A stretch of DNA of 24,000 nt from Verrucomicrobiota bacterium JB024 (GTDB lineage Bacteria; Verrucomicrobiota; Verrucomicrobiia; Opitutales; Cerasicoccaceae): assembly GCA_030673825.1 (NCBI GenBank), contig JAUTCS010000092.1, positions 48,954-72,953 of the forward strand. Direction: 5' to 3'. Both the position numbers and the translations under genes were made by a program. This document shows, piece by piece, positions 14,812 through 21,653 of this stretch (positions are counted from its first letter, which is position 1; the number at the start of each line of letters is the position of its first letter). The notes under the pieces are model-generated. The model did not search any database. It saw only the letters and a program-made list of their open reading frames with translations, and was not told where the DNA came from.

Positions 14812-15444
14812 TTAATGACACAGGCCGACGCAGCGCAGCCACTGGCGGGACATCAAGGCGTGTCCGGCGGGGGTGGGATGGACGCCGTCCGCCGCCCAGG
14901 TGGCGGGGCCGTGCTGGATCGCCTGCGCGGCGAACATGCCGTCGAAGGGCACATAGACCGCTTTAAACTCCTCGGCGAGGGCGCGGGCGACCTGGATTTT
15001 CGGATCGAGGTCTTCGCGCCAGGCCTGACGGTCGGCGGGGTGGCGCAGGACAAAGGGCTCGCAGATGATGAGCTTGATTCCTGCGGCGACGCTGCGGGTG
15101 AGGATGTCGCGGTAGTGCTTTTCGTAGGCCTCGGTGGAGGTCGGGTCGTTGCTGTCGAAGCGGCGCCAAGTGTCGTTGATCCCGATGAGGATGGAGACCC
15201 AGTCCGGCTTGAGGTCGAGGCAGTCCTGCTGCCAGCGGTCGGAGAGGTCGGCGGCGCGGTTGCCGCTGATCCCGCGGTTGAGGAAGGTCAGTTTCAGGTC
15301 CGGGCGAGCTGCGCCCAGCGCGGCGGCAGTCAGGTGGGCGTAGCCTCTGCCCGTGTTGTCAGGATACGCCCGGTTGCGGTCGCAGTCGGTGATGCTGTCC
15401 CCCTGAAAAAGGATCGTTTGTCCACGTTCGAAAATCAGACTCAT
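14812..15444 (-). CDS. SGNH/GDSL-family hydrolase (esterase/lipase-like)
   Basis: The start is taken at MSLIFERG (ATG 15444-15442). All four SGNH blocks are present: FQGDSITD, RGISGNRA, IGINDT and DGVHPTPAGH. The track's 262-aa version has a non-homologous extension. Confidence 0.9.
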   Translation of the reverse strand: MSLIFERGQTILFQGDSITDCDRNRAYPDNTGRGYAHLTAAALGAARPDLKLTFLNRGISGNRAADLSDRWQQDCLDLKPDWVSILIGINDTWRRFDSNDPTSTEAYEKHYRDILTRSVAAGIKLIICEPFVLRHPADRQAWREDLDPKIQVARALAEEFKAVYVPFDGMFAAQAIQHGPATWAADGVHPTPAGHALMSRQWLRCVGLCH

Positions 15445-15617
15445 AAGCCGCCAATTCTGTATCAGTGCCGCTTCTTTGAAAAGCGGAAAGCGTGGGTTTT
15501 TCTCTGGGGGGAGCCTGTCCCGCTGCTGAAAATCGCTTGCCGGAATGGACAGGGTTGCCGGATAGGGTGGCACCGGTTGTGCTTCCCCTGCTATGCGCAA
15601 TTTTTAACCTTTTGAAT

Positions 15618-15875
15618 ATGGGAGCTGGCGAAACACAGATCCACGGCCACGCCGCGATGGACATGATGATGGCGGCGGATAAGCCCTATACGCGCGAGAC
15701 GCTACGGGCGGACATTGTGGCACGCTTTGGCGAGGACGCGCTGTTCTACACCTGCTCGGCCAGTGGGCTGAGCGTGGACGGGCTGATCGACTTTCTCGCC
15801 GGTCATGGCAAGTTCAGCGGCGGCTCTGAGGCATTTCGGATCGATCCGGCCAGCCGTTGTGCCGACGACGAGTAG
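15618..15875 (+). CDS. yecH: YecH-like putative metal-binding protein (DUF2492 family)
   Basis: The start is taken at MGAGETQIHGH (ATG 15618). The 85-aa product, IHGHAAMDMMMAADKPYTRETLRADIVARFGEDALFYTCSASGLSVDGLIDFLAGHGKF, resembles E. coli YecH as I recall it (IHGHEV...ARFHTCSAEG...KGKF). Confidence 0.8.
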   Translation: MGAGETQIHGHAAMDMMMAADKPYTRETLRADIVARFGEDALFYTCSASGLSVDGLIDFLAGHGKFSGGSEAFRIDPASRCADDE

Positions 15876-15907: not shown

Positions 15908-16843
15908 CTAGAAGCTCGCGCCGATCTCGAAACCGAGGGTCGCGCCGGGCTCGGCCTTGATCGTCTGGTACTTGTTGCGCTGGGCACGGAACTCGTACTC
16001 GCGGAAGAAGTCGCCCTGGACGAAGCCGCGCACGTAGAAGGGCCCGCCGAAGCGATAGGTCGCGCCGACGGCTACGGTGACCGAGCGCTCTTCCACCGCG
16101 GGGTTGGTCATGCCGCCGACGGCGGGGACGAACTGGCGGTTGAGCTGGAAGCTGCTGGAGTTGTACTGCACGGTGGCGTCGACCACCAGTTCCTGGTCGG
16201 CGTTGACGTCATAGACGACGGTGACGCCGTTAAAGCTGCGTACGCGCAGCTTGTCATTGACCTTCCACTCGATGAAGGCGACCGGCCAGTAGTGGACGGA
16301 CTCCTGCAGGTCGGCGGTGGCCAACACCCCGAAGGAGAAGGAGAAGTCCTTGAAAAACTCGTAGCTGGCCCCGACGCTGAAGAGGTAGGAGTCGCCGTCG
16401 GTCAGCGAGGCGTCGCCGGACTCGGCCCCGAGGCTGCCGTTGGCCATGACGTACGCGCCCCAGTCGCTGTCCTCGAACTGGTACTGGTAGATGGCGCTGA
16501 GGGCGATCTGGTTGATGTCGCTGAAGTACGAGGGAGCACCGTCGGACCAGCCGTAGTCGCTGTACACATAGTCAAAGGTCACGCTCAGCCGGTTGTCCTT
16601 CCAGCCCTTCTTATACGAGAGGGTGGTCTGGAGCTCGGTCAGGTCCACCTCGCCGGGCAGGCCGCCTTTCAGGCCGCTGGCGAAGGTGTGGCTCACGCCC
16701 TGGCCCACGGTGATGCCCACGGGGATTTCCGGCGAGAAGATGTCCAGAAAGGTCCCGGAGGTCGTTAGCTGTTGCGCGTGAGCGCTGATGGCGGCGAGGC
16801 CGGTGAGCAGGGCGAGGGCGGTGGTTTTAAAAGGGAGAGGCAT
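15908..16843 (-). CDS. Outer-membrane beta-barrel protein (porin-like, family not recognised)
   Basis: 311 aa with signal peptide MPLPFKTTALALLTGLAAISAHA/QQ. It shows alternating aromatic/polar beta-strand patterning throughout and a C-terminal ...LGFEIGASF with a terminal Phe, typical of BAM substrates. Confidence 0.8.
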   Translation of the reverse strand: MPLPFKTTALALLTGLAAISAHAQQLTTSGTFLDIFSPEIPVGITVGQGVSHTFASGLKGGLPGEVDLTELQTTLSYKKGWKDNRLSVTFDYVYSDYGWSDGAPSYFSDINQIALSAIYQYQFEDSDWGAYVMANGSLGAESGDASLTDGDSYLFSVGASYEFFKDFSFSFGVLATADLQESVHYWPVAFIEWKVNDKLRVRSFNGVTVVYDVNADQELVVDATVQYNSSSFQLNRQFVPAVGGMTNPAVEERSVTVAVGATYRFGGPFYVRGFVQGDFFREYEFRAQRNKYQTIKAEPGATLGFEIGASF

Positions 16844-16857
16844 GGCTGGAATACGGC

Positions 16858-16904
16858 TTATTCAAAATGAGTCGTTTCGAAGGTCAAGTTTCATTATTCA
16901 AAAT
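16858..16904. repeat. Two copies of the 11-mer TTATTCAAAAT spaced 36 nt apart, in the AT-rich region upstream of the OMP gene
   Basis: The copies lie at 16858-16868 and 16894-16904, 15-61 nt upstream of the OMP start codon (16843). A GTCGTTT...CGAA module is also repeated nearby (16871.. and 16919..). Confidence 0.7.
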
Positions 16905-17143
16905 CAATAAAGAATAATGTCGTTTGCATCGAAAGCTTGAAGAAAAAACGGTCTTTGGGCGAGGCCGCATTTTGCTGTGCTTGTGGAAGGATGGGGGCGT
17001 GCGGGGTGGAGCACAAGCCGGGCCTGGGGTGGCGGGGCTTGAAAGGAATCCTTGCTATTTGCGTCAAATTGAAACATCACCAGCAGCTACGGGCACATGA
17101 CTTCTCCCCTTGGCCTGCTCTCTCAAACACACCGGGAACGACT

Positions 17144-17665
17144 ATGTTGCAACTTGTCCACGACAATGTGCGCTGCCTGCGTCAGGGGATCGACCTGATC
17201 ACGGCGCTGCCCGAGGGCGAATACACCCGTAAACACGCGGCCTGCTTCGGCAGCACGATCGGGGGGCACATGCGCCACAACATCGACCACTACGAGCGCT
17301 TCGCCCAAGGGTGGTCAACGGGCCGTATCGACTACGACGCGCGTACCCGCGATCCGGGGGTAGAGACCGACCCCGCCATCGCCGCCACGGCCATGACGGC
17401 GCTGGAAAACGCCCTGGAGCAACTGACCGATGGCGACCTGGACAAGCAGGTCGAGGTCATCATGGACAGCGGAGGCGACCCCGAATTGTGCGGGCCGGGC
17501 CACTCCAGTGTGCGTCGCGAACTGCAATTTCTCCTCAGTCACACCGTCCACCACTACGCCCTCATCGCGGTGCTGTGCCAACTGCGTGGGATCGAGACCG
17601 GCCCGTCCTTCGGCGTGGCCCCGAGCACGCTGCGCTACCGCGGGCAGTCCTCATGTGCACGGTAA
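17144..17665 (+). CDS. DinB-like (DinB_2 / four-helix-bundle metal-binding) family protein
   Basis: The start is taken at MLQLVHDNVRCL (ATG 17144). His ligand candidates are GGHMRHNIDHYERF and LLSHTVHHYALI, in the spacing expected for the DinB superfamily. The track's 242-aa version starts at a TTG in the upstream intergenic region. Confidence 0.75.
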   Translation: MLQLVHDNVRCLRQGIDLITALPEGEYTRKHAACFGSTIGGHMRHNIDHYERFAQGWSTGRIDYDARTRDPGVETDPAIAATAMTALENALEQLTDGDLDKQVEVIMDSGGDPELCGPGHSSVRRELQFLLSHTVHHYALIAVLCQLRGIETGPSFGVAPSTLRYRGQSSCAR

Positions 17666-18396
17666 GCTGGTGGAGCGCGGCGGACGGATACGAGCTGTAC
17701 TTTAACCGGGACGAGCTCAAGTCGCGCCTGCCCGGGTTTCCCCCGGAGGAGCTGGAGCTCGACGGGGTACGCTACCTGAGCCCGCGTGACGCGGACGCCG
17801 GGGGCACTTGGCTGCTGGTCAACGAGTACGGCCTCACCGTCTGCCTGATCAACCAGTACCCGCTACGCCGCCCGGTCAAGGTCGGTCCCCTCGTGAGCCG
17901 GGGGCACCTCGTGCGGCGGATGGCTGCCTGCGCCCATGTGGCCGAGGTGGAGCGACGCCTCGGGGAAGAAGAGCTTTTCTCCTTTCGTCCATTTCAAATG
18001 ATCGCGGTCGAGCCCGGCGGCACGGGCGCGGCCTTCGCCTGGGACGGGCACAAACTTACCCCGACCGAGAACGCCCACGAGCATATGCCTTTCACCTCTT
18101 CCTCTTATCTGTCCGAGCAGATCGTGCAGCACCGCCGTGAGCGTTTCGCCCGGATCGTGGCCGAGCGCGGCGACATGACCCCGGCGGATCTGCTGGCCTT
18201 TCACCGCGAGCACAATATCGGCGCGGGCGCTTTCTCGGTCTGTATGCAGCGCGATGACGCCGAGACCGTCAGCCTGACTCAGGTTGTGGTGCGCCCGGAC
18301 ACGATTTCGATGACTTACGCGCAGAAGGTGCCGGGGCGGCCGAACTTCGCCGAGCCGGTGCGTGTGAGCCTGAAACCCCACGCCTGCCTTTCCTGA
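17653..18396 (+). CDS. NRDE-family (TANGO2-like) protein with an N-terminal Met-Cys
   Basis: ATG 17653 lies inside the longer track ORF 17311..18396. The sequence MCTVSWWSAADGYELYFNRDELKSR...DAGGTWLLVNEYGLTVCLIN...SRGHLV carries the NRDE motif, GGTW and SRG blocks. The gene overlaps the DinB-like gene by 13 nt (ATGTGCACGGTAA). Confidence 0.85.
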   Translation: MCTVSWWSAADGYELYFNRDELKSRLPGFPPEELELDGVRYLSPRDADAGGTWLLVNEYGLTVCLINQYPLRRPVKVGPLVSRGHLVRRMAACAHVAEVERRLGEEELFSFRPFQMIAVEPGGTGAAFAWDGHKLTPTENAHEHMPFTSSSYLSEQIVQHRRERFARIVAERGDMTPADLLAFHREHNIGAGAFSVCMQRDDAETVSLTQVVVRPDTISMTYAQKVPGRPNFAEPVRVSLKPHACLS

Positions 18397-18398
18397 TC

Positions 18399-21035
18399 AT
18401 GCGCGCGCAGATGAACAAACAGCAGCGCGAAACCCGGCGGCTGCACTGGCGGCTGGGGTTGACCATTGTTTTCGTCGTGGCGCTGGTGGCTTCCTTTCTC
18501 TGGCGCCAGGCGATGCTCCCGCCGGAGGGACCTCTACTGCCCGGCCAGGTGCGCATCGCGGTGCCGGAGTGGAAGGGCGACCGCGCCACCGGCGACAAGA
18601 TCGAGCTGGCCTACCGGGACCTGCCCGCGCTCAACGGCGATGCCGAGGCTCCGGCGCTGATTCTTGTGCACGGCAGCCCGATGGCCTCGCAGGCCATGGA
18701 CCAGCTCATCCCTGCGCTCAACGAAGACTACCGGCTGATCCTGCCCGACCTGCCGGGTTTCGGCGGGTCCACCCGTGACGTGCCGGACTACTCGATCCGC
18801 GCCCACGCCCACGCCGTGCTCGACCTGATGGACGCCCTCGAAATCGAGCGGGCCAACCTGCTGGGCTACAGCCAGGGCAGCGGTGTGATTATCAACGTGG
18901 CCGATCTCGCTCCGGAGCGGGTGGAGAGCCTGACGCTGCTCTCCGGCATCGGCGTGCAGGAGTACGAGCTGATGGGCGACTACACGCTCAACCACGGCCT
19001 CTACGGGATGCAACTGCTGGTGCTGACGGCAGCCCGCGAGGTGCTGCCGCACTTCGGCGCGCTGGACCGCTCCATGCTCAATGTGCCCTACGCGCGCAAC
19101 TTCTGGGACAGCGACCAGCGGCCCCTGCGCGGTGTATTGGAAAAGTATGACGGCCCTATGCTGATCGTGCAGGGGCGGCAGGACTATTTCGTCCCCTCGA
19201 CGACGGCCCGCGAGCACGCCCGCATCGTCCCCCAGAGCGAGCTGGTCCTGCTGGATGGCGGACACCTGTTGCCCTTTAAGAAGGCGAAAGAGGTGGGCGG
19301 GCATGTCCATGATTTCCTGAAAAAGGTGGAAAAGGGGACGGCCAAGCTGCGGAAGGATGCCTCGCCGGAACGCCTGCTCCAGGCGGCGTCGGGCCAGCCC
19401 GTCGCCCGCCGCGAGGCTGGCGGACGCACGTTGGCTTTTTACTGCGGACTGCTCCTGGTGGGGACGCAGGTGGCTGAGGATTTGACGTGCATTTCCGCCG
19501 GTTTTTTTGTCGCGCGGGGTGTGGTGCCATTCTGGGCCGCGACGGCGGCGTGTACCTTTGGCATTTTTGTCGGTGACATCTTTTTGTACCTGGCGGGGCG
19601 CTTCCTCGGACGCAAGGCGCTGCGCCACGCACCGATCAAGTGGATGCTCAAGGAGCGCGATTTGAGCTCGATGCAGGAGTGGTTCCAGCAGCGCGGTCCG
19701 ATGCTGATCGTGATCTCGCGCTTCATGCCCGGCACGCGCATCCCGGTGTATTTCGGCTCGGGGATGCTGCACATGCCGATGGGCAAGTTCGTGGTGTATT
19801 TCTTCCTGGCGTCGGCGGCGTGGACGCCGTGCCTGATCGGCCTGGCCTGGTGGATGGGCGACGCCTTTATCGGGTACTTCGAGCGCTTCGAGAAGTACGC
19901 CATCGTCGGACTGCTCGGGGTCGTTGTCCTGCTCATGATGATCATTCACCTGGTGGTGCCGCTTTTTACCTGGCGCGGACGCCGCCGCCTGTACGGCCGT
20001 TGGCGGCGCTGGGTACGCTGGGAGTATTGGCCGGCGTGGCTCTTCTATCCGCCGGTGGCGCTCTATGTGCTGTGGCTGGGATTCAAGAATCGGCACCTCG
20101 CTCTCTTCACCGCGGTCAATCCCGGCATGAGCGGCGGCAGTGGCTTTACGGGCGAGTCCAAGGTGGACATCCTCGACAAGCTTAGCGGCGCAGGCGAGGC
20201 CGTGGCCGCCTGGACGGCGCTGGAAGCGGATGCCTCGGCGGAGGAAAAGGAGGAGCGCCTGCGGGCCTTCATGGAGCGCGAGGGGCTGGACTTCCCTGTC
20301 GTGCTCAAGCCCGACATCGGCGAGCGTGGCAGCGGCGTGGCCATCGTGCGCGACTGGGAAGCGGCGCGTGCTTACCTGGATAAATGCCCGGACACGGTGA
20401 TCGCGCAGCGTTATGTATCCGGAAATGAATACGGTGTCTTTTACGTGCGCTACCCCTGGGAGGAAAAGGGGCGGATTTTCGGGATCACCGACAAGCGGTT
20501 TACCGCCGTGACCGGCGACGGTAAGACCCCGCTGGAGGAGCTGATCCTCGGGGACAACCGCGCGATATGCATGCGCGCCTTTTTCGAGCAGAAGCACAGC
20601 GAGCACCTCAGCGATGTCGTCCCGGCGGGCGAACGCTACGTGCTGGCCGAGCTGGGCACGCATTGCCGGGGGGCGCTTTTCCTCGACGGGAGCGACCTGG
20701 CGAGCGAGCCACTACGGGCATGGATGCAGCAGGTCAGTGACACATTCGACGGTTTTTACTTTGGCCGCTACGACGTGCGCGTGCCCACGGAAGAAGACCT
20801 ACGTGCCGGGCGCAATCTCACGGTGATTGAGCTCAACGGCGTGAGCTCGGAGGCGACCTGGATCTACGACCCGAAACACTCGGTCCTGTTTGCCTGGCGC
20901 ACGCTGTTTGAGCAGTGGCGCATCGCCTTTAAAATCGCCGCCTGGAATCGCGAGCACGGCGAGCGGCCGATGGGGCACCGGGCGACGGTCCGCGCCATCC
21001 TCGGGCGAGGTGTGAGGGAGCCTTTCGAGGCATAG
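18399..21035 (+). CDS. Tri-modular membrane protein: alpha/beta-hydrolase + DedA/VTT-like membrane domain + C-terminal ATP-grasp ligase
   Basis: 878 aa, with the ATG 2 nt after the NRDE stop. The hydrolase spans about nt 18600-19328 and has VHGSP, GYSQG (Ser158, nt 18870-18872), GRQDYF (Asp262) and DGGHLL (His289). The VTT-like module spans about nt 19425-19868 (FGIFVGDIFLYLAGRFLG, ISRFMPGTRIPVYFGSG). The ATP-grasp spans about nt 20196-20918 (VVLKPDIGERGSGVAIV, AQRYVSGNEYGVFYV, TVIELNGVSSE). Confidence 0.9.
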   Translation: MRAQMNKQQRETRRLHWRLGLTIVFVVALVASFLWRQAMLPPEGPLLPGQVRIAVPEWKGDRATGDKIELAYRDLPALNGDAEAPALILVHGSPMASQAMDQLIPALNEDYRLILPDLPGFGGSTRDVPDYSIRAHAHAVLDLMDALEIERANLLGYSQGSGVIINVADLAPERVESLTLLSGIGVQEYELMGDYTLNHGLYGMQLLVLTAAREVLPHFGALDRSMLNVPYARNFWDSDQRPLRGVLEKYDGPMLIVQGRQDYFVPSTTAREHARIVPQSELVLLDGGHLLPFKKAKEVGGHVHDFLKKVEKGTAKLRKDASPERLLQAASGQPVARREAGGRTLAFYCGLLLVGTQVAEDLTCISAGFFVARGVVPFWAATAACTFGIFVGDIFLYLAGRFLGRKALRHAPIKWMLKERDLSSMQEWFQQRGPMLIVISRFMPGTRIPVYFGSGMLHMPMGKFVVYFFLASAAWTPCLIGLAWWMGDAFIGYFERFEKYAIVGLLGVVVLLMMIIHLVVPLFTWRGRRRLYGRWRRWVRWEYWPAWLFYPPVALYVLWLGFKNRHLALFTAVNPGMSGGSGFTGESKVDILDKLSGAGEAVAAWTALEADASAEEKEERLRAFMEREGLDFPVVLKPDIGERGSGVAIVRDWEAARAYLDKCPDTVIAQRYVSGNEYGVFYVRYPWEEKGRIFGITDKRFTAVTGDGKTPLEELILGDNRAICMRAFFEQKHSEHLSDVVPAGERYVLAELGTHCRGALFLDGSDLASEPLRAWMQQVSDTFDGFYFGRYDVRVPTEEDLRAGRNLTVIELNGVSSEATWIYDPKHSVLFAWRTLFEQWRIAFKIAAWNREHGERPMGHRATVRAILGRGVREPFEA

Positions 21036-21098: not shown

Positions 21099-21653
21099 TC
21101 AGGCCGAGAGGTCTTCGCGGTCCTGCGGTCGCTCGAAGGAGGAATGTCCGGAGCCGGGGCCGTGATGGAAGGACTCAAGTTCGGCGCGCAGGTCGGCGTT
21201 TTCCTTTTCCAGTCGGTGGTTGGCCTGTTCGAGTCGGAAGAGCTTTTCATCGGCAGCGCGCTGGTAGGCCATGCGCTCGGAGGCGTTGTTGATCGCGCGC
21301 AGCAGGCGGTCGGGCGAGAGGGTGGGCTTTTTCAGGTAGTCCTGGGCGCCGCGCTTCATGGCCTCGACGGCGGTGGCCTCGTCTCCGGCACTCGTAAGTA
21401 CGACGATAGGCCAGCAGAGGGTTTTGAACTCGCGGCGCAGCTCCAGGATGAAGTCCAGCCCGTTCATCCCGGGTAGCTGGAGATCGAGCAGGATGACGTC
21501 CACCTTGACGGCCCGGCAGTAGTTGAGCCCCTCGTCGGCGTTGGGGGCTTCCAGCACCTGATTGGTAAATTCCTTATCTGTCCCCAGGTATTGCGCGATT
21601 AAGCTGCGGTCCCGGGGATTGTCTTCGACAATAAGTATTCGGCGTTTTTTCAA
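21099..21653 (-). CDS. Single-domain response regulator (CheY-like receiver) with a C-terminal coiled-coil tail
   Basis: 184 aa with a TTG start at 21653. Receiver motifs are ILIVEDN, VILLDLQLPGMNG, VVLTSAGD and DYLKKP. The tail LFRLEQANHRLEKENADLRAELESF is heptad-like. No DNA-binding or enzymatic output domain is present. Confidence 0.85.
   Translation of the reverse strand: MKKRRILIVEDNPRDRSLIAQYLGTDKEFTNQVLEAPNADEGLNYCRAVKVDVILLDLQLPGMNGLDFILELRREFKTLCWPIVVLTSAGDEATAVEAMKRGAQDYLKKPTLSPDRLLRAINNASERMAYQRAADEKLFRLEQANHRLEKENADLRAELESFHHGPGSGHSSFERPQDREDLSA

Follow-up and report, generated by a model that had tools for sequence, protein, structure and literature searches.

What is the function of a block of three tightly packed genes in Verrucomicrobiota bacterium JB024, in which a DinB-like gene and one for a bacterial relative of TANGO2, a human disease protein, are followed by a gene for a large membrane-anchored fusion protein? 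In the analyzed window, the whole 24,000-nucleotide stretch of DNA to which all coordinates refer, the DinB_2 gene (17144-17665), the NRDE/TANGO2 gene (17653-18396), and the gene of an 878-aa fusion protein (18399-21035) all lie on the plus strand. The DinB-like gene opens with the ATG at 17144 and closes with the TAA at 17663-17665, and the ATG of the NRDE gene is at 17653. The two genes share the 13 nucleotides ATGTGCACGGTAA (17653-17665, plus strand), read as the NRDE codons Met-Cys-Thr-Val and, in the DinB frame, as Cys-Ala-Arg and the stop codon. The NRDE stop codon TGA (18394-18396) is followed, after a 2-nt gap (TC), by the ATG of the fusion gene at 18399, opening the 878-aa ORF that runs to 21035. 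Both neighbors, an OMP-like ORF (15908-16843) and a response regulator gene (21099-21653), are on the minus strand, which leaves the trio isolated on its own strand. From the gene geometry, the divergent intergenic region (16844-17143) between the OMP-like ORF and the trio is presumed to contain the promoter; a simple sigma-70 scan gave no promoter-like site there.

The coordinates, overlap, and gap given in the first-pass annotation proved exact to the base, and its proposal of a tight three-gene operon is borne out by related loci, as the gene order is kept, with tight packing, in all 12 close loci inspected. Judged from the gene arrangement, the DinB-like, NRDE/TANGO2, and fusion genes probably form one conserved operon. 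A gene-neighborhood check of their co-occurrence, suggested at the same time, was strongly positive. All three genes are present in about 20 of 41 relatives, the set of genomes being near-identical for each gene; two relatives have no clear match for one of the three. The DinB-like gene is directly upstream of the NRDE gene in 72 of 80 loci from about ten phyla, with the exact 13-nt overlap in 43 of these 72 pairs, across phyla, and a spacing of at most 32 nt in 70 of them.

The DinB_2-family protein (173 aa; 17144-17665, plus strand; Pfam DinB_2, 34.4 bits, cut-off 24.8) retains the candidate histidine ligands noticed earlier: H45, H133, H136, and H137 never vary, and H42 hardly does, in an alignment of 14 sequences from at least seven phyla, in which R44, R67, R69, E74, R125, and E126 are invariant as well. 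H45, H133, and H137 form a candidate metal triad. The NRDE/TANGO2-family protein (247 aa; 17653-18396, plus strand; Pfam TANGO2, 30.5 bits, cut-off 22.6) contains, as described in the first-pass annotation, the Met-Cys start (here Met-Cys-Thr) and the NRDE (FNRDE, residues 17-21), GGTW (50-53), and SRG (82-84) blocks, all invariant across ten orthologs. A Met-Cys-Thr/Ser start is found in 257 of 262 NRDE homologs. The NRDE model (pLDDT 80) is structurally most similar to crystal structures of human TANGO2 (TM 0.62-0.63); bile-salt hydrolases and penicillin V acylases rank next. The protein is a putative N-terminal-nucleophile hydrolase or transacylase with Cys2 as the nucleophile. In human TANGO2, the active site is of the Cys-Ntn type and includes a pocket suited to fatty-acid derivatives (PMC13044924); the protein binds acyl-CoA via the NRDE motif (PMC11867700).

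The fusion protein (878 aa; 18399-21035; this and the following domains on the plus strand) combines an N-terminal transmembrane anchor, an alpha/beta-hydrolase, a DedA/VTT domain, a Trp/Tyr-rich linker helix, and an ATP-grasp ligase. A hydropathy scan places the N-terminal transmembrane helix, preceded by a basic tail, at aa 17-35 (18447-18503). In the alpha/beta-hydrolase domain (18651-19292; Pfam Abhydrolase_1, 98.6 bits), the HGS oxyanion motif (H91-S93), the nucleophile S158, D262, and H289 are invariant in an alignment of ten sequences from multiple phyla. The DedA/VTT membrane domain (19416-19958; Pfam VTT_dom, 60.8 bits, and hydropathy) has its Pfam core at aa 368-480 and hydrophobic segments that reach aa 520; E360, D361, G392, D393, R441, P444, G445, and R447 are invariant in a ten-sequence alignment. 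A conserved E-W-P...Y-P-P helix (aa 542-556; 20022-20066) lies directly 5' of the ATP-grasp domain, and an N-terminal E-Y-W-P...F-Y helix is kept even in stand-alone ATP-grasp homologs. The ATP-grasp carboxylate-amine ligase domain itself (aa 561-878; 20079-21032) is supported by alignment, profile search, and structure model. Though its RimK-type ATP-grasp score of 20.4 bits is slightly below the cut-off of 21, the assignment is confirmed because the model (pLDDT 89) matches known ATP-grasp modules, the top Foldseek matches being the cyanophycin synthetase G domain, GshF, and Ddl. The profile matches are CphA2, CphA1, and GshF, and K77, E251, and N253 (domain numbering) are invariant. By profile and fold, the closest relatives of the domain are amino-acid and peptide ligases. 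The original family calls for all three genes were right, as judged by the Pfam scores and, for the ATP-grasp domain, by the model; the alignments show intact catalytic motifs throughout the NRDE, DinB-like, ATP-grasp, and hydrolase parts. Full-length orthologs of the fusion occur in 16 of the 41 relatives and also in Acidobacteriota, Planctomycetota, Calditrichia, Gemmatimonadota, and Latescibacterota.

A possible substrate is suggested by neighboring genes in other genomes. Within the 24,000-nt window no aminolipid synthase gene was found beside the trio, so the link to aminolipids comes from other lineages and from co-occurrence at the genome level. An Acetyltransf_5 (OlsB-type) gene is present in 55 of the 80 loci, mostly accompanied by a PlsC-type (OlsA-like) gene. 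The order OlsB-(PlsC)-DinB-NRDE-(ABH-)VTT-ATP-grasp, with PlsC and the hydrolase part (ABH) optional, was observed in Acidobacteriota, Planctomycetota, Calditrichia, Gemmatimonadota, and Myxococcota, and the order DinB-NRDE-OlsB-PlsC-YHS in Arenicella-like Gammaproteobacteria. All 15 loci with both OlsB and ATP-grasp also contain PlsC or the hydrolase domain, and the loci without PlsC always have the latter. An OlsF-like gene is present in 20 of 21 cassette-positive relatives versus 8 of 20 negative ones; in a sample of Verrucomicrobiota, an OlsB-type GNAT gene is found in 14/14 NRDE-positive and 81/137 NRDE-negative genomes (Fisher p = 0.001; the genomes are related and not independent). Since OlsB/OlsF genes are common, occurring in 63% of the phylum sample, this co-occurrence is only moderately informative. 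The JB024 genome has a single OlsF-like gene (PlsC + Acetyltransf_5, 620 aa), on contig C4.

A similar set is found in Vibrionaceae, where the order VTT, ATP-grasp, DinB, NRDE, YHS, OlsF is kept in all 12 genomes inspected. Mapping of locus tags via annotations indicates that this cluster is most probably VCA0651-VCA0646 of V. cholerae. VCA0646, the second, low-salinity OlsF of this species, is a functional ornithine-lipid synthase, encoded last in a four-gene operon (PMC12186959). The co-transcribed, HapR-activated genes vca0646-0649 were described as an operon "of unknown function"; vca0648 and vca0649 are dispensable for the sole phenotype reported, and deletion of the operon had no phenotype (10.1101/2024.09.23.614608). 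In an iurV mutant, VCA0650-1 ("D-Ala-D-Ala ligase, hypothetical"), VCA0648-9, and VCA0646-7 are jointly down (PMC7600106).

As the unit occurs in many phyla and usually adjoins genes of amino-acid lipid synthesis, it probably modifies those lipids. We suggest, with a probability of roughly 0.55, that the trio is a membrane-associated module tailoring or remodeling amino-acid membrane lipids, that is, acyloxyacyl aminolipids of the ornithine-lipid type, by a predicted chemistry that would be a modification undescribed so far. From the earlier proposal of a membrane pathway acting on an amide- or thiol-containing head group, the amide part is supported by the OlsB, OlsA, and OlsF neighbors in many phyla, and for thiol chemistry nothing was found. 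In JB024, the OlsF-like synthase encoded on the other contig would supply the aminolipid substrate, and the DedA/VTT domain may hold or flip the lipid at the inner membrane. The cytoplasmic ATP-grasp domain would convert a carboxylate, in the simplest case the lipid's free head-group carboxyl, to an acyl-phosphate for coupling with an amine or an amino acid, comparable to the ATP-dependent taurine transfer in cerilipin. After removal of Met1, the NRDE protein could use Cys2 as N-terminal nucleophile to act on the same lipid, cleaving or transferring an acyl or head-group moiety bound by an amide link, a step for which bile-salt hydrolases, penicillin V acylases, and acid ceramidase provide precedents on their own substrates. 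The start/stop overlap would keep the DinB-like protein, possibly the metal-dependent partner of NRDE, in a fixed ratio with it. Finally, the alpha/beta-hydrolase domain might add or remove an ester-linked fatty acid, OlsI being the O-acyltransferase precedent.

The module could instead degrade or recycle aminolipids rather than decorate them, allowing remodeling under changing phosphate, salinity, or stress, which we consider possible but clearly less probable. The hydrolase would then take off the ester-linked fatty acid and NRDE, assisted by DinB, would cut the N-acyl amide, as do its closest fold relatives beyond human TANGO2; the ATP-grasp domain would re-use the products (amino acid or fatty acid), though breakdown offers no obvious role for an ATP-consuming ligase. 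The Ser-Asp-His triad of the hydrolase domain is intact, the Arenicella-like genomes pair DinB-NRDE with OlsB/PlsC and have no adjacent ligase, and in Vibrio, salinity and phosphate influence the synthesis of ornithine lipids (PMC12186959). However, catabolic genes are more seldom translationally coupled in one operon with biosynthetic genes, and the bile-salt hydrolase and isopenicillin N acyltransferase relatives act as transferases too (PMC13044924).

Somewhat more doubtful is a different membrane-bound carboxylate as the substrate, such as a phospholipid head group or a cell-wall or glycan precursor carried on undecaprenyl phosphate; the OlsB/OlsF neighborhood would then reflect only shared envelope regulation. 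Such regulation alone would rarely produce the observed adjacency to OlsB/PlsC or OlsF, in shuffled orders and at least seven phyla, and no peptidoglycan or glycan genes recur across the 80 DinB/NRDE loci. The VTT domain has sub-threshold NCBIfam matches to the undecaprenyl-phosphate transporter UptA (60.7 bits, cut-off 250) and to DedA, and the ATP-grasp domain is Ddl-like, its V. cholerae counterpart being annotated as a D-Ala-D-Ala ligase (PMC7600106). Further, OlsB-type genes are missing in some carriers: three of five orphan cases (a DinB-NRDE pair or a lone NRDE), those of Marispirochaeta, Moanabacter, and an Eiseniibacteriota MAG, lack Acetyltransf_5. These three genomes have no clear ATP-grasp homolog either, hence the DinB-NRDE core pair is not strictly dependent on OlsB or the ligase. 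In the two samples above, however, the cassette is restricted to OlsB-type-positive genomes (20/21 relatives, OlsF-like; 14/14 in the phylum).

A soluble pathway like that of ergothioneine, making a small thiol or thio-imidazole, with DinB resembling EgtB, NRDE resembling EgtC, and ATP-grasp as the ligase, is very improbable. Thiohistidine-dipeptide clusters do combine DinB-fold domains with ATP-grasp ligases, but the FGE-sulfatase-like domain that defines sulfoxide synthases and is required by them (PMC13674229) is absent from the 173-aa DinB-like protein in a Pfam search, and the EgtB analogy of the first-pass annotation fails. Its EgtC analogy, to which the Met-Cys start, resembling that of Ntn amidohydrolases, lends itself, falls too: NRDE has no match to any class-II glutamine amidotransferase family, and its fold is matched instead by TANGO2, the bile-salt hydrolases, and the penicillin V acylases. 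Across the 80 loci, no EgtD, EgtA, or methyltransferase gene recurs beside the pair, and a polytopic membrane domain is fused or adjacent to the ligase. Least probable of all are a heme-trafficking chaperone, since the Shewanella TANGO2 homolog HtpA (SO0126), tied to cytochrome c maturation (PMC10470608), is encoded next to a metal transporter rather than a DinB gene and TANGO2 reportedly binds heme non-specifically (PMC13044924), and a programmed-cell-death or defense module, as PADLOC gave zero matches and the killing by over-expressed vca0646 and vca0647 (10.1101/2024.09.23.614608) needs OlsF and YHS but not the NRDE/DinB counterparts, lipid over-production being a simpler cause.

Known systems share parts with the aminolipid-tailoring module proposed here. 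The ligase resembles cyanophycin synthetase, GshF, and Ddl, which couple amines to the carboxylate of an amino acid or peptide, in its ATP-grasp fold and its conserved ATP/Mg residues (Lys and Glu-x-Asn), but at TM of only ~0.55 and ~20% identity, and it differs by the preceding Trp/Tyr-rich helix and the fused DedA membrane domain. To our knowledge, no ligase of this type has a lipid substrate. With human TANGO2 (PDB 8sv7, 9bwa) and the Cys-Ntn hydrolases compared (bile-salt hydrolase, penicillin V acylase, acid ceramidase, NAAA, and isopenicillin N acyltransferase), the NRDE protein shares the Met-Cys N-terminus, NRDE motif, and alpha-beta-beta-alpha fold, whereas its identity to TANGO2 is only 14-15%, the Pfam match is limited to residues 1-175, and the translationally coupled DinB-like partner has no equivalent in eukaryotic TANGO2.

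The V. cholerae cluster VCA0651-VCA0646 has the DedA/VTT, ATP-grasp, DinB-like, and NRDE families in common with the trio, but there DedA and ATP-grasp are separate genes and the alpha/beta-hydrolase domain is absent, whereas here the three modules are fused and the ligase gene is the last of the trio; the Vibrio cluster also includes a periplasmic YHS protein and OlsF, which in JB024 is on another contig. OlsI, an alpha/beta-hydrolase O-acyltransferase (PMC12971839) of the OlsHI ornithine-lipid pathway in Singulisphaera acidiphila, is similar, by its description, in fold and aminolipid context, whereas the hydrolase domain here is fused and possibly periplasmic. Finally, the module is genomically linked to OlsB/OlsA/OlsF-type genes of the OlsBA and OlsF pathways, yet none of the known ornithine-lipid tailoring enzymes (OlsC, OlsD, OlsE, OlsG, and the cerilipin taurine transferase) is an ATP-grasp, DinB, or TANGO2 protein. 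In cerilipin, the ornithine-lipid carboxyl receives taurine in an ATP-dependent reaction whose gene is unidentified; such a head-group modification calls for an ATP-dependent amide-forming enzyme, and the predicted ATP-grasp ligase of the trio fits this description (PMC12971839).

The three genes analyzed here, encoding a DinB-like protein, an NRDE/TANGO2 protein, and a fusion of alpha/beta-hydrolase, DedA/VTT, and ATP-grasp domains, all lie on the forward strand of the window. The DinB-like gene (173-codon frame) extends from the ATG at 17144 to the TAA at 17663-17665, the NRDE gene (247-codon frame) from the ATG at 17653 to the TGA at 18394-18396, and the fusion gene (878-codon frame) from the ATG at 18399, 2 bases past the NRDE stop, to 21035. 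The DinB-like and NRDE genes overlap by 13 nt, with the common sequence ATGTGCACGGTAA. The first-pass annotation had described a tight three-gene operon, and its gene coordinates, 13-nt overlap, and 2-nt gap all match the window sequence exactly. Upstream, 300 nt separate the trio from an OMP-like ORF without a Pfam match (15908-16843, minus strand), and downstream it is followed by a response regulator gene (21099-21653, minus strand). Since both flanking genes are on the opposite strand, the trio is a self-contained same-strand block. In scans that are uninformative for this phylum, no internal promoter-like site was found between 17144 and 18399 (sigma-70 scan) and no terminator in the 63-nt spacer past 21035 (terminator scan); the spacer shows no stronger folding than shuffled sequence (z = -0.42). 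A small gene for a DUF2492 protein occupies 15612-15875 (plus strand), flanked by the OMP-like ORF and by an SGNH/GDSL hydrolase gene (14812-15600, minus strand). A 709-codon open frame antisense to the fusion gene (18534-20663, minus strand) is of a kind typical in high-GC coding sequence and was not taken as a gene. The nearest named protein is from Ruficoccus sp. ZRK36 (77% identity), and the source of the window is a Ruficoccus-like member of the Verrucomicrobiota.

The three-gene operon structure is conserved in related bacteria. All three genes were found in about 20 of 41 related genomes, the set of genomes being nearly identical for each gene, and two of the 41 relatives have no clear match for one of them. 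Comparison of gene neighborhoods, a check that the first-pass annotation had proposed, comes out positive: in all 12 related loci inspected base by base, chosen where the contigs permit, DinB, NRDE, and the fusion gene follow one another directly in this order. Without exception, the NRDE gene starts in related loci with ATG-TGC-ACN, and the DinB stop is located anywhere from 13 nt inside the NRDE gene to 28 nt before it.

The DinB-NRDE pair is distributed much more widely. A profile scan with one genome per species yielded 80 loci from the Verrucomicrobiota, Gammaproteobacteria (Arenicella-like bacteria, Aliivibrio, and Hahellaceae), Acidobacteriota, Planctomycetota, Spirochaetota, Calditrichia, Gemmatimonadota, Myxococcota, Latescibacterota, and others. 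The DinB gene is directly upstream of NRDE in 72 of them; 43 of these 72 pairs have the identical 13-nt overlap, and the spacing is at most 32 nt in 70. What preserves the overlap is that the NRDE codons for Met-Cys-Thr-(Val/Met/Leu), taken in the DinB frame, spell Cys-Ala-X-stop. A coupling this fixed points to production of the two proteins in equimolar amounts, and they probably form a complex. No DinB-NRDE or NRDE-acyltransferase fusions were found among 120 word-index matches or in the best 150 of 5448 profile matches; a long ORF in comparison locus L068, considered as a fusion candidate, is merely an upstream extension without a domain.

Clustering of all ORFs in the 80 loci, combined with domain scans of representatives, links the trio to aminolipid genes. 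An Acetyltransf_5 GNAT gene, of the OlsB or N-acyl-amino-acid-synthase type, is present in 55 loci, and other recurrent partners of DinB-NRDE encode a PlsC-type (OlsA-like) acyltransferase, a periplasmic YHS-domain protein, and small membrane proteins. In about 35 loci NRDE is followed by an ATP-grasp, which may stand alone or be fused, either to VTT (VTT::ATP-grasp) or in the three-part arrangement of this window. The order is OlsB, (PlsC), DinB, NRDE, and VTT-ATP-grasp, the last with or without the hydrolase domain, in Acidobacteriota, Planctomycetota, Calditrichia, Gemmatimonadota, and Myxococcota; DinB, NRDE, OlsB, PlsC, and YHS in Arenicella-like bacteria; and VTT, ATP-grasp, DinB, NRDE, YHS, and OlsF in Aliivibrio. 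All 15 loci that have both OlsB and ATP-grasp also contain PlsC or the hydrolase domain, and four acidobacterial loci have the hydrolase domain without PlsC. A hydrolase domain handling the ester-linked fatty acid would fit this distribution.

Several other features of these loci were observed. The Arenicella-like loci (L020-L079; for instance, L024:5432-9557) contain DinB, NRDE, OlsB-like, PlsC-like, YHS, and small membrane protein genes. The operon usually lacks the ATP-grasp gene in these genomes; a 340-aa homolog with the same N-terminal E-Y-W-P helix was found elsewhere in an Arenicella-like genome (L095:1405-2427, minus strand) among unrelated flanking genes. The YHS-domain protein beside the DinB-NRDE pair has a signal peptide and recurs in Verrucomicrobiota, Hahellaceae, and Vibrionaceae, often together with a small DoxX-like membrane protein (L087:862-1782, L078:1174-2322, L081, L028, and L042). 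In one Verrucomicrobiia locus, an ORF between the OlsB-like gene and NRDE (L089:3399-4436, plus strand) encodes a ferric-reductase-like membrane domain fused to a Rieske [2Fe-2S] domain, and a similar ORF cluster occurs in eight loci.

The 24-kb window contains no OlsB-type GNAT (Acetyltransf_5) gene; here hydrolase, DedA, and ATP-grasp are all fused, in a lineage whose synthase gene is unlinked. The sole OlsF-like, Acetyltransf_5 gene of this genome lies on another contig, C4 (L093:430-2292, plus strand), and encodes a 620-aa protein in which a PlsC-type acyltransferase (N-terminal) is fused to an Acetyltransf_5 GNAT (C-terminal). The aminolipid substrate is likely made by this protein. A mechanosensitive-channel-like gene adjoins the OlsF-like gene. 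Among the 41 related genomes, an OlsF-like gene is present in 20 of 21 cassette-positive relatives, the lone exception being a genome 79% complete, versus eight of 20 negatives. Across 151 evenly sampled Verrucomicrobiota genomes with a completeness of 90% or more, an Acetyltransf_5 gene was found in 14 of 14 genomes with this NRDE subfamily versus 81 of 137 without it (Fisher p = 0.001). This co-occurrence supports the aminolipid link moderately, since OlsF genes are widespread and genomes that share ancestry do not count independently. Three genomes are exceptions to the link: no Acetyltransf_5 gene was detected in the searched genome of Marispirochaeta associata (L070), which has the DinB-NRDE pair, nor in Moanabacter (L026) or an Eiseniibacteriota MAG (L060), which both have a lone NRDE gene. 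The Marispirochaeta and Moanabacter genomes also contain no clear ATP-grasp homolog. In L070, the gene after NRDE encodes an MFS transporter.

The NRDE protein matches the TANGO2/NRDE family profile (PF05742) over residues 1-175 with 30.5 bits (cut-off 22.6; 30.4 bits in the genome search), and both the M1-C2-T3 start and the N18-R19-D20-E21 motif are present. Positions M1, C2, T3, R19, D20, and E21, the GGTW and SRG blocks, and a C-terminal S-V-x-M-x-R-x-D block are invariant in 10 orthologs, and 257 of 262 homologs start with Met-Cys-Thr/Ser. At E <= 1e-30, the subfamily comprises 1485 clusters (50% identity). For the structure model (pLDDT 79.7, pTM 0.84), Foldseek ranks human TANGO2 crystal structures in the top four places (TM 0.60-0.63), with bile-salt hydrolases and penicillin V acylases next. 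By profile and model, the protein is thus assigned to the TANGO2/NRDE family with a predicted alpha-beta-beta-alpha Cys N-terminal-nucleophile (Ntn) hydrolase fold. In the human TANGO2 structure, Cys2 was placed in an Ntn active site, where it forms the N-terminus of the mature protein; the site has a large amphipathic pocket, and fatty-acid derivatives were proposed as substrates (PMC13044924); acyl-CoA binding by TANGO2 depends on the NRDE motif (PMC11867700).

The DinB-like protein, a predicted member of the DinB_2 superfamily (PF12867, 34.4 bits versus the cut-off 24.8), has a candidate three-His metal site. H45, H133, and H137 (the latter two forming an H-x3-H motif), together with H136, are invariant across 14 sequences; so are four arginines and two glutamates, which hint at an anionic ligand. 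No solved structure related to this protein by sequence was found.

Each domain of the fusion protein retains its characteristic residues. The N-terminal domain matches Abhydrolase_1 (98.6 bits), and the HGS motif and S158, D262, and H289 are invariant, as expected for an alpha/beta-hydrolase fold with a Ser-Asp-His triad. The central domain matches DedA/VTT (PF09335, 60.8 bits versus the cut-off 33.9) and keeps the VTT acidic and Arg/Pro/Gly signatures; it was not assigned to UptA, as matches to the UptA equivalogs are far under their cut-offs. The C-terminal domain scores slightly below the cut-off with the Pfam RimK-type ATP-grasp profile (20.4 bits versus 21), and a profile search identified CphA2 (1.4e-09), CphA1, and GshF. 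The top structural matches of its model (pLDDT 89) are the cyanophycin synthetase G domain, GshF, and Ddl. K77, E251, and N253 (domain numbering) are invariant, the catalytic Lys and Glu-x-Asn being kept, and the domain is predicted to have an ATP-grasp carboxylate-amine ligase fold with conserved ATP/Mg residues. Cyanophycin synthetase, GshF, and Ddl all ligate an amine to the carboxylate of an amino acid or peptide. A conserved E-W-P...Y-P-P helix upstream of the ATP-grasp domain, also found in stand-alone homologs, suggests a position at the membrane interface. Hydropathy and the positive-inside rule suggest that the hydrolase domain is outside the cytoplasm and the ligase inside.

The best-supported explanation of these observations is that the trio is a membrane module that tailors or remodels aminolipids made by OlsF or OlsBA. 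The operon structure, its conservation, its link to aminolipid genes, and the folds with their intact motifs are established here; the substrates and reaction directions given below are inferred, as are the DinB-NRDE complex and the topology. The ligase would couple an amine to a carboxylate of the lipid; an amide-linked group would be cleaved or transferred by NRDE and its DinB partner; the hydrolase domain would deal with the ester-linked acyl chain; and presenting or flipping the lipid would fall to the DedA domain. A precedent for the hydrolase step is OlsI, an alpha/beta-hydrolase acting on an ester-linked fatty acid (PMC12971839). A more specific version, to which we give only about three chances in ten, is that DinB-NRDE is a two-subunit enzyme with N-acyl amino-acid lipids as native substrates, from which it would cleave or transfer the acyl or head-group part held by the amide bond, and that, together with the DedA-anchored ligase, it makes a new aminolipid class with an extended or exchanged head group.

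Among the rival explanations, the most likely is a catabolic or recycling role. It is followed by a module acting on another lipid-linked substrate, which the three exceptional genomes would suit and the recurrent OlsB-type neighbors would not. Less likely still is an analogy with ergothioneine or thiohistidine pathways. The first-pass annotation compared the two small proteins with EgtB and EgtC and envisaged a pathway for a small amide- or thiol-containing head group or metabolite; neither comparison held. The 173-aa DinB-like protein matches DinB_2 alone and is devoid of the FGE-sulfatase-like domain, for which reason both its identification as an EgtB/OvoA-type sulfoxide synthase (NHISS) and the pathway analogy were rejected (comparison in PMC13674229). 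The NRDE protein has no GATase_2-type Pfam or NCBIfam match at E <= 0.01, as would be expected of an EgtC-like class-II glutamine amidotransferase, its lone extra match being a far sub-threshold C45 acyltransferase (16.6 bits versus 85). Haem trafficking and defence are the least likely, as the gene context of the haem chaperone HtpA differs and there are no PADLOC matches.

If the two-subunit-enzyme version is true, the TANGO2 family would gain its first class of physiological substrates. Loss of TANGO2 in humans causes a severe metabolic disorder, and its biochemical activity is disputed, with haem transfer, acyl-CoA binding, and Cys-Ntn hydrolysis all proposed. The linkage, across many phyla, of a translationally DinB-coupled NRDE subfamily to N-acyl amino-acid lipid synthases offers a genetically tractable hypothesis for the TANGO2 substrate, directly testable in the cultured carriers Ruficoccus, Cerasicoccus, Aliivibrio, and Arenicella. 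The trio also points to a so far undescribed modification of bacterial aminolipids, which serve under phosphate, salinity, and antimicrobial-peptide stress. To our knowledge, the gene for ATP-dependent modification of the ornithine-lipid carboxyl has been missing since the 1970s, and the trio offers a candidate enzyme type. The nearest biochemical precedent for the proposed ligase step is the formation of cerilipin, in which taurine is attached to the carboxyl of ornithine lipid at the expense of ATP by a step that has no assigned gene (PMC12971839). A full-text search of literature outside subscription journals for ornithine lipids with TANGO2, DedA, or ATP-grasp found no linking paper, and two aminolipid reviews give the DinB, NRDE, DedA, and ATP-grasp genes no function (PMC11631085, PMC12971839).

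The closest known gene system is found in the Vibrionaceae, where this NRDE subfamily occurs in 49 of 101 species genomes. The order VTT, ATP-grasp, DinB, NRDE, YHS, and OlsF was observed in all 12 genomes inspected. Judging by gene count and annotations, this cluster appears to correspond gene for gene to V. cholerae VCA0651-VCA0646, the YHS gene apparently occupying the vca0647 position. VCA0646 is a functional ornithine-lipid synthase, which is induced by low salinity and ends the putative four-gene operon VCA0649-VCA0646 (PMC12186959). The vca0646-0649 operon is activated by HapR and was described as "four genes of unknown function"; over-expression of vca0646 plus vca0647 leads to cell death, vca0648 and vca0649 being dispensable for this effect (10.1101/2024.09.23.614608). 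The 21 genes down-regulated in an iurV mutant include VCA0646-7, VCA0648-9, and VCA0650-1, the last annotated as "D-alanine-D-alanine ligase, hypothetical protein" (PMC7600106). In none of these three papers is a function assigned to the genes for DinB, NRDE, DedA, or ATP-grasp (PMC12186959; 10.1101/2024.09.23.614608; PMC7600106). The V. cholerae VCA0651-VCA0646-type cluster differs from the window in having YHS and OlsF genes. The proposed aminolipid role offers a functional frame for vca0646-0649.
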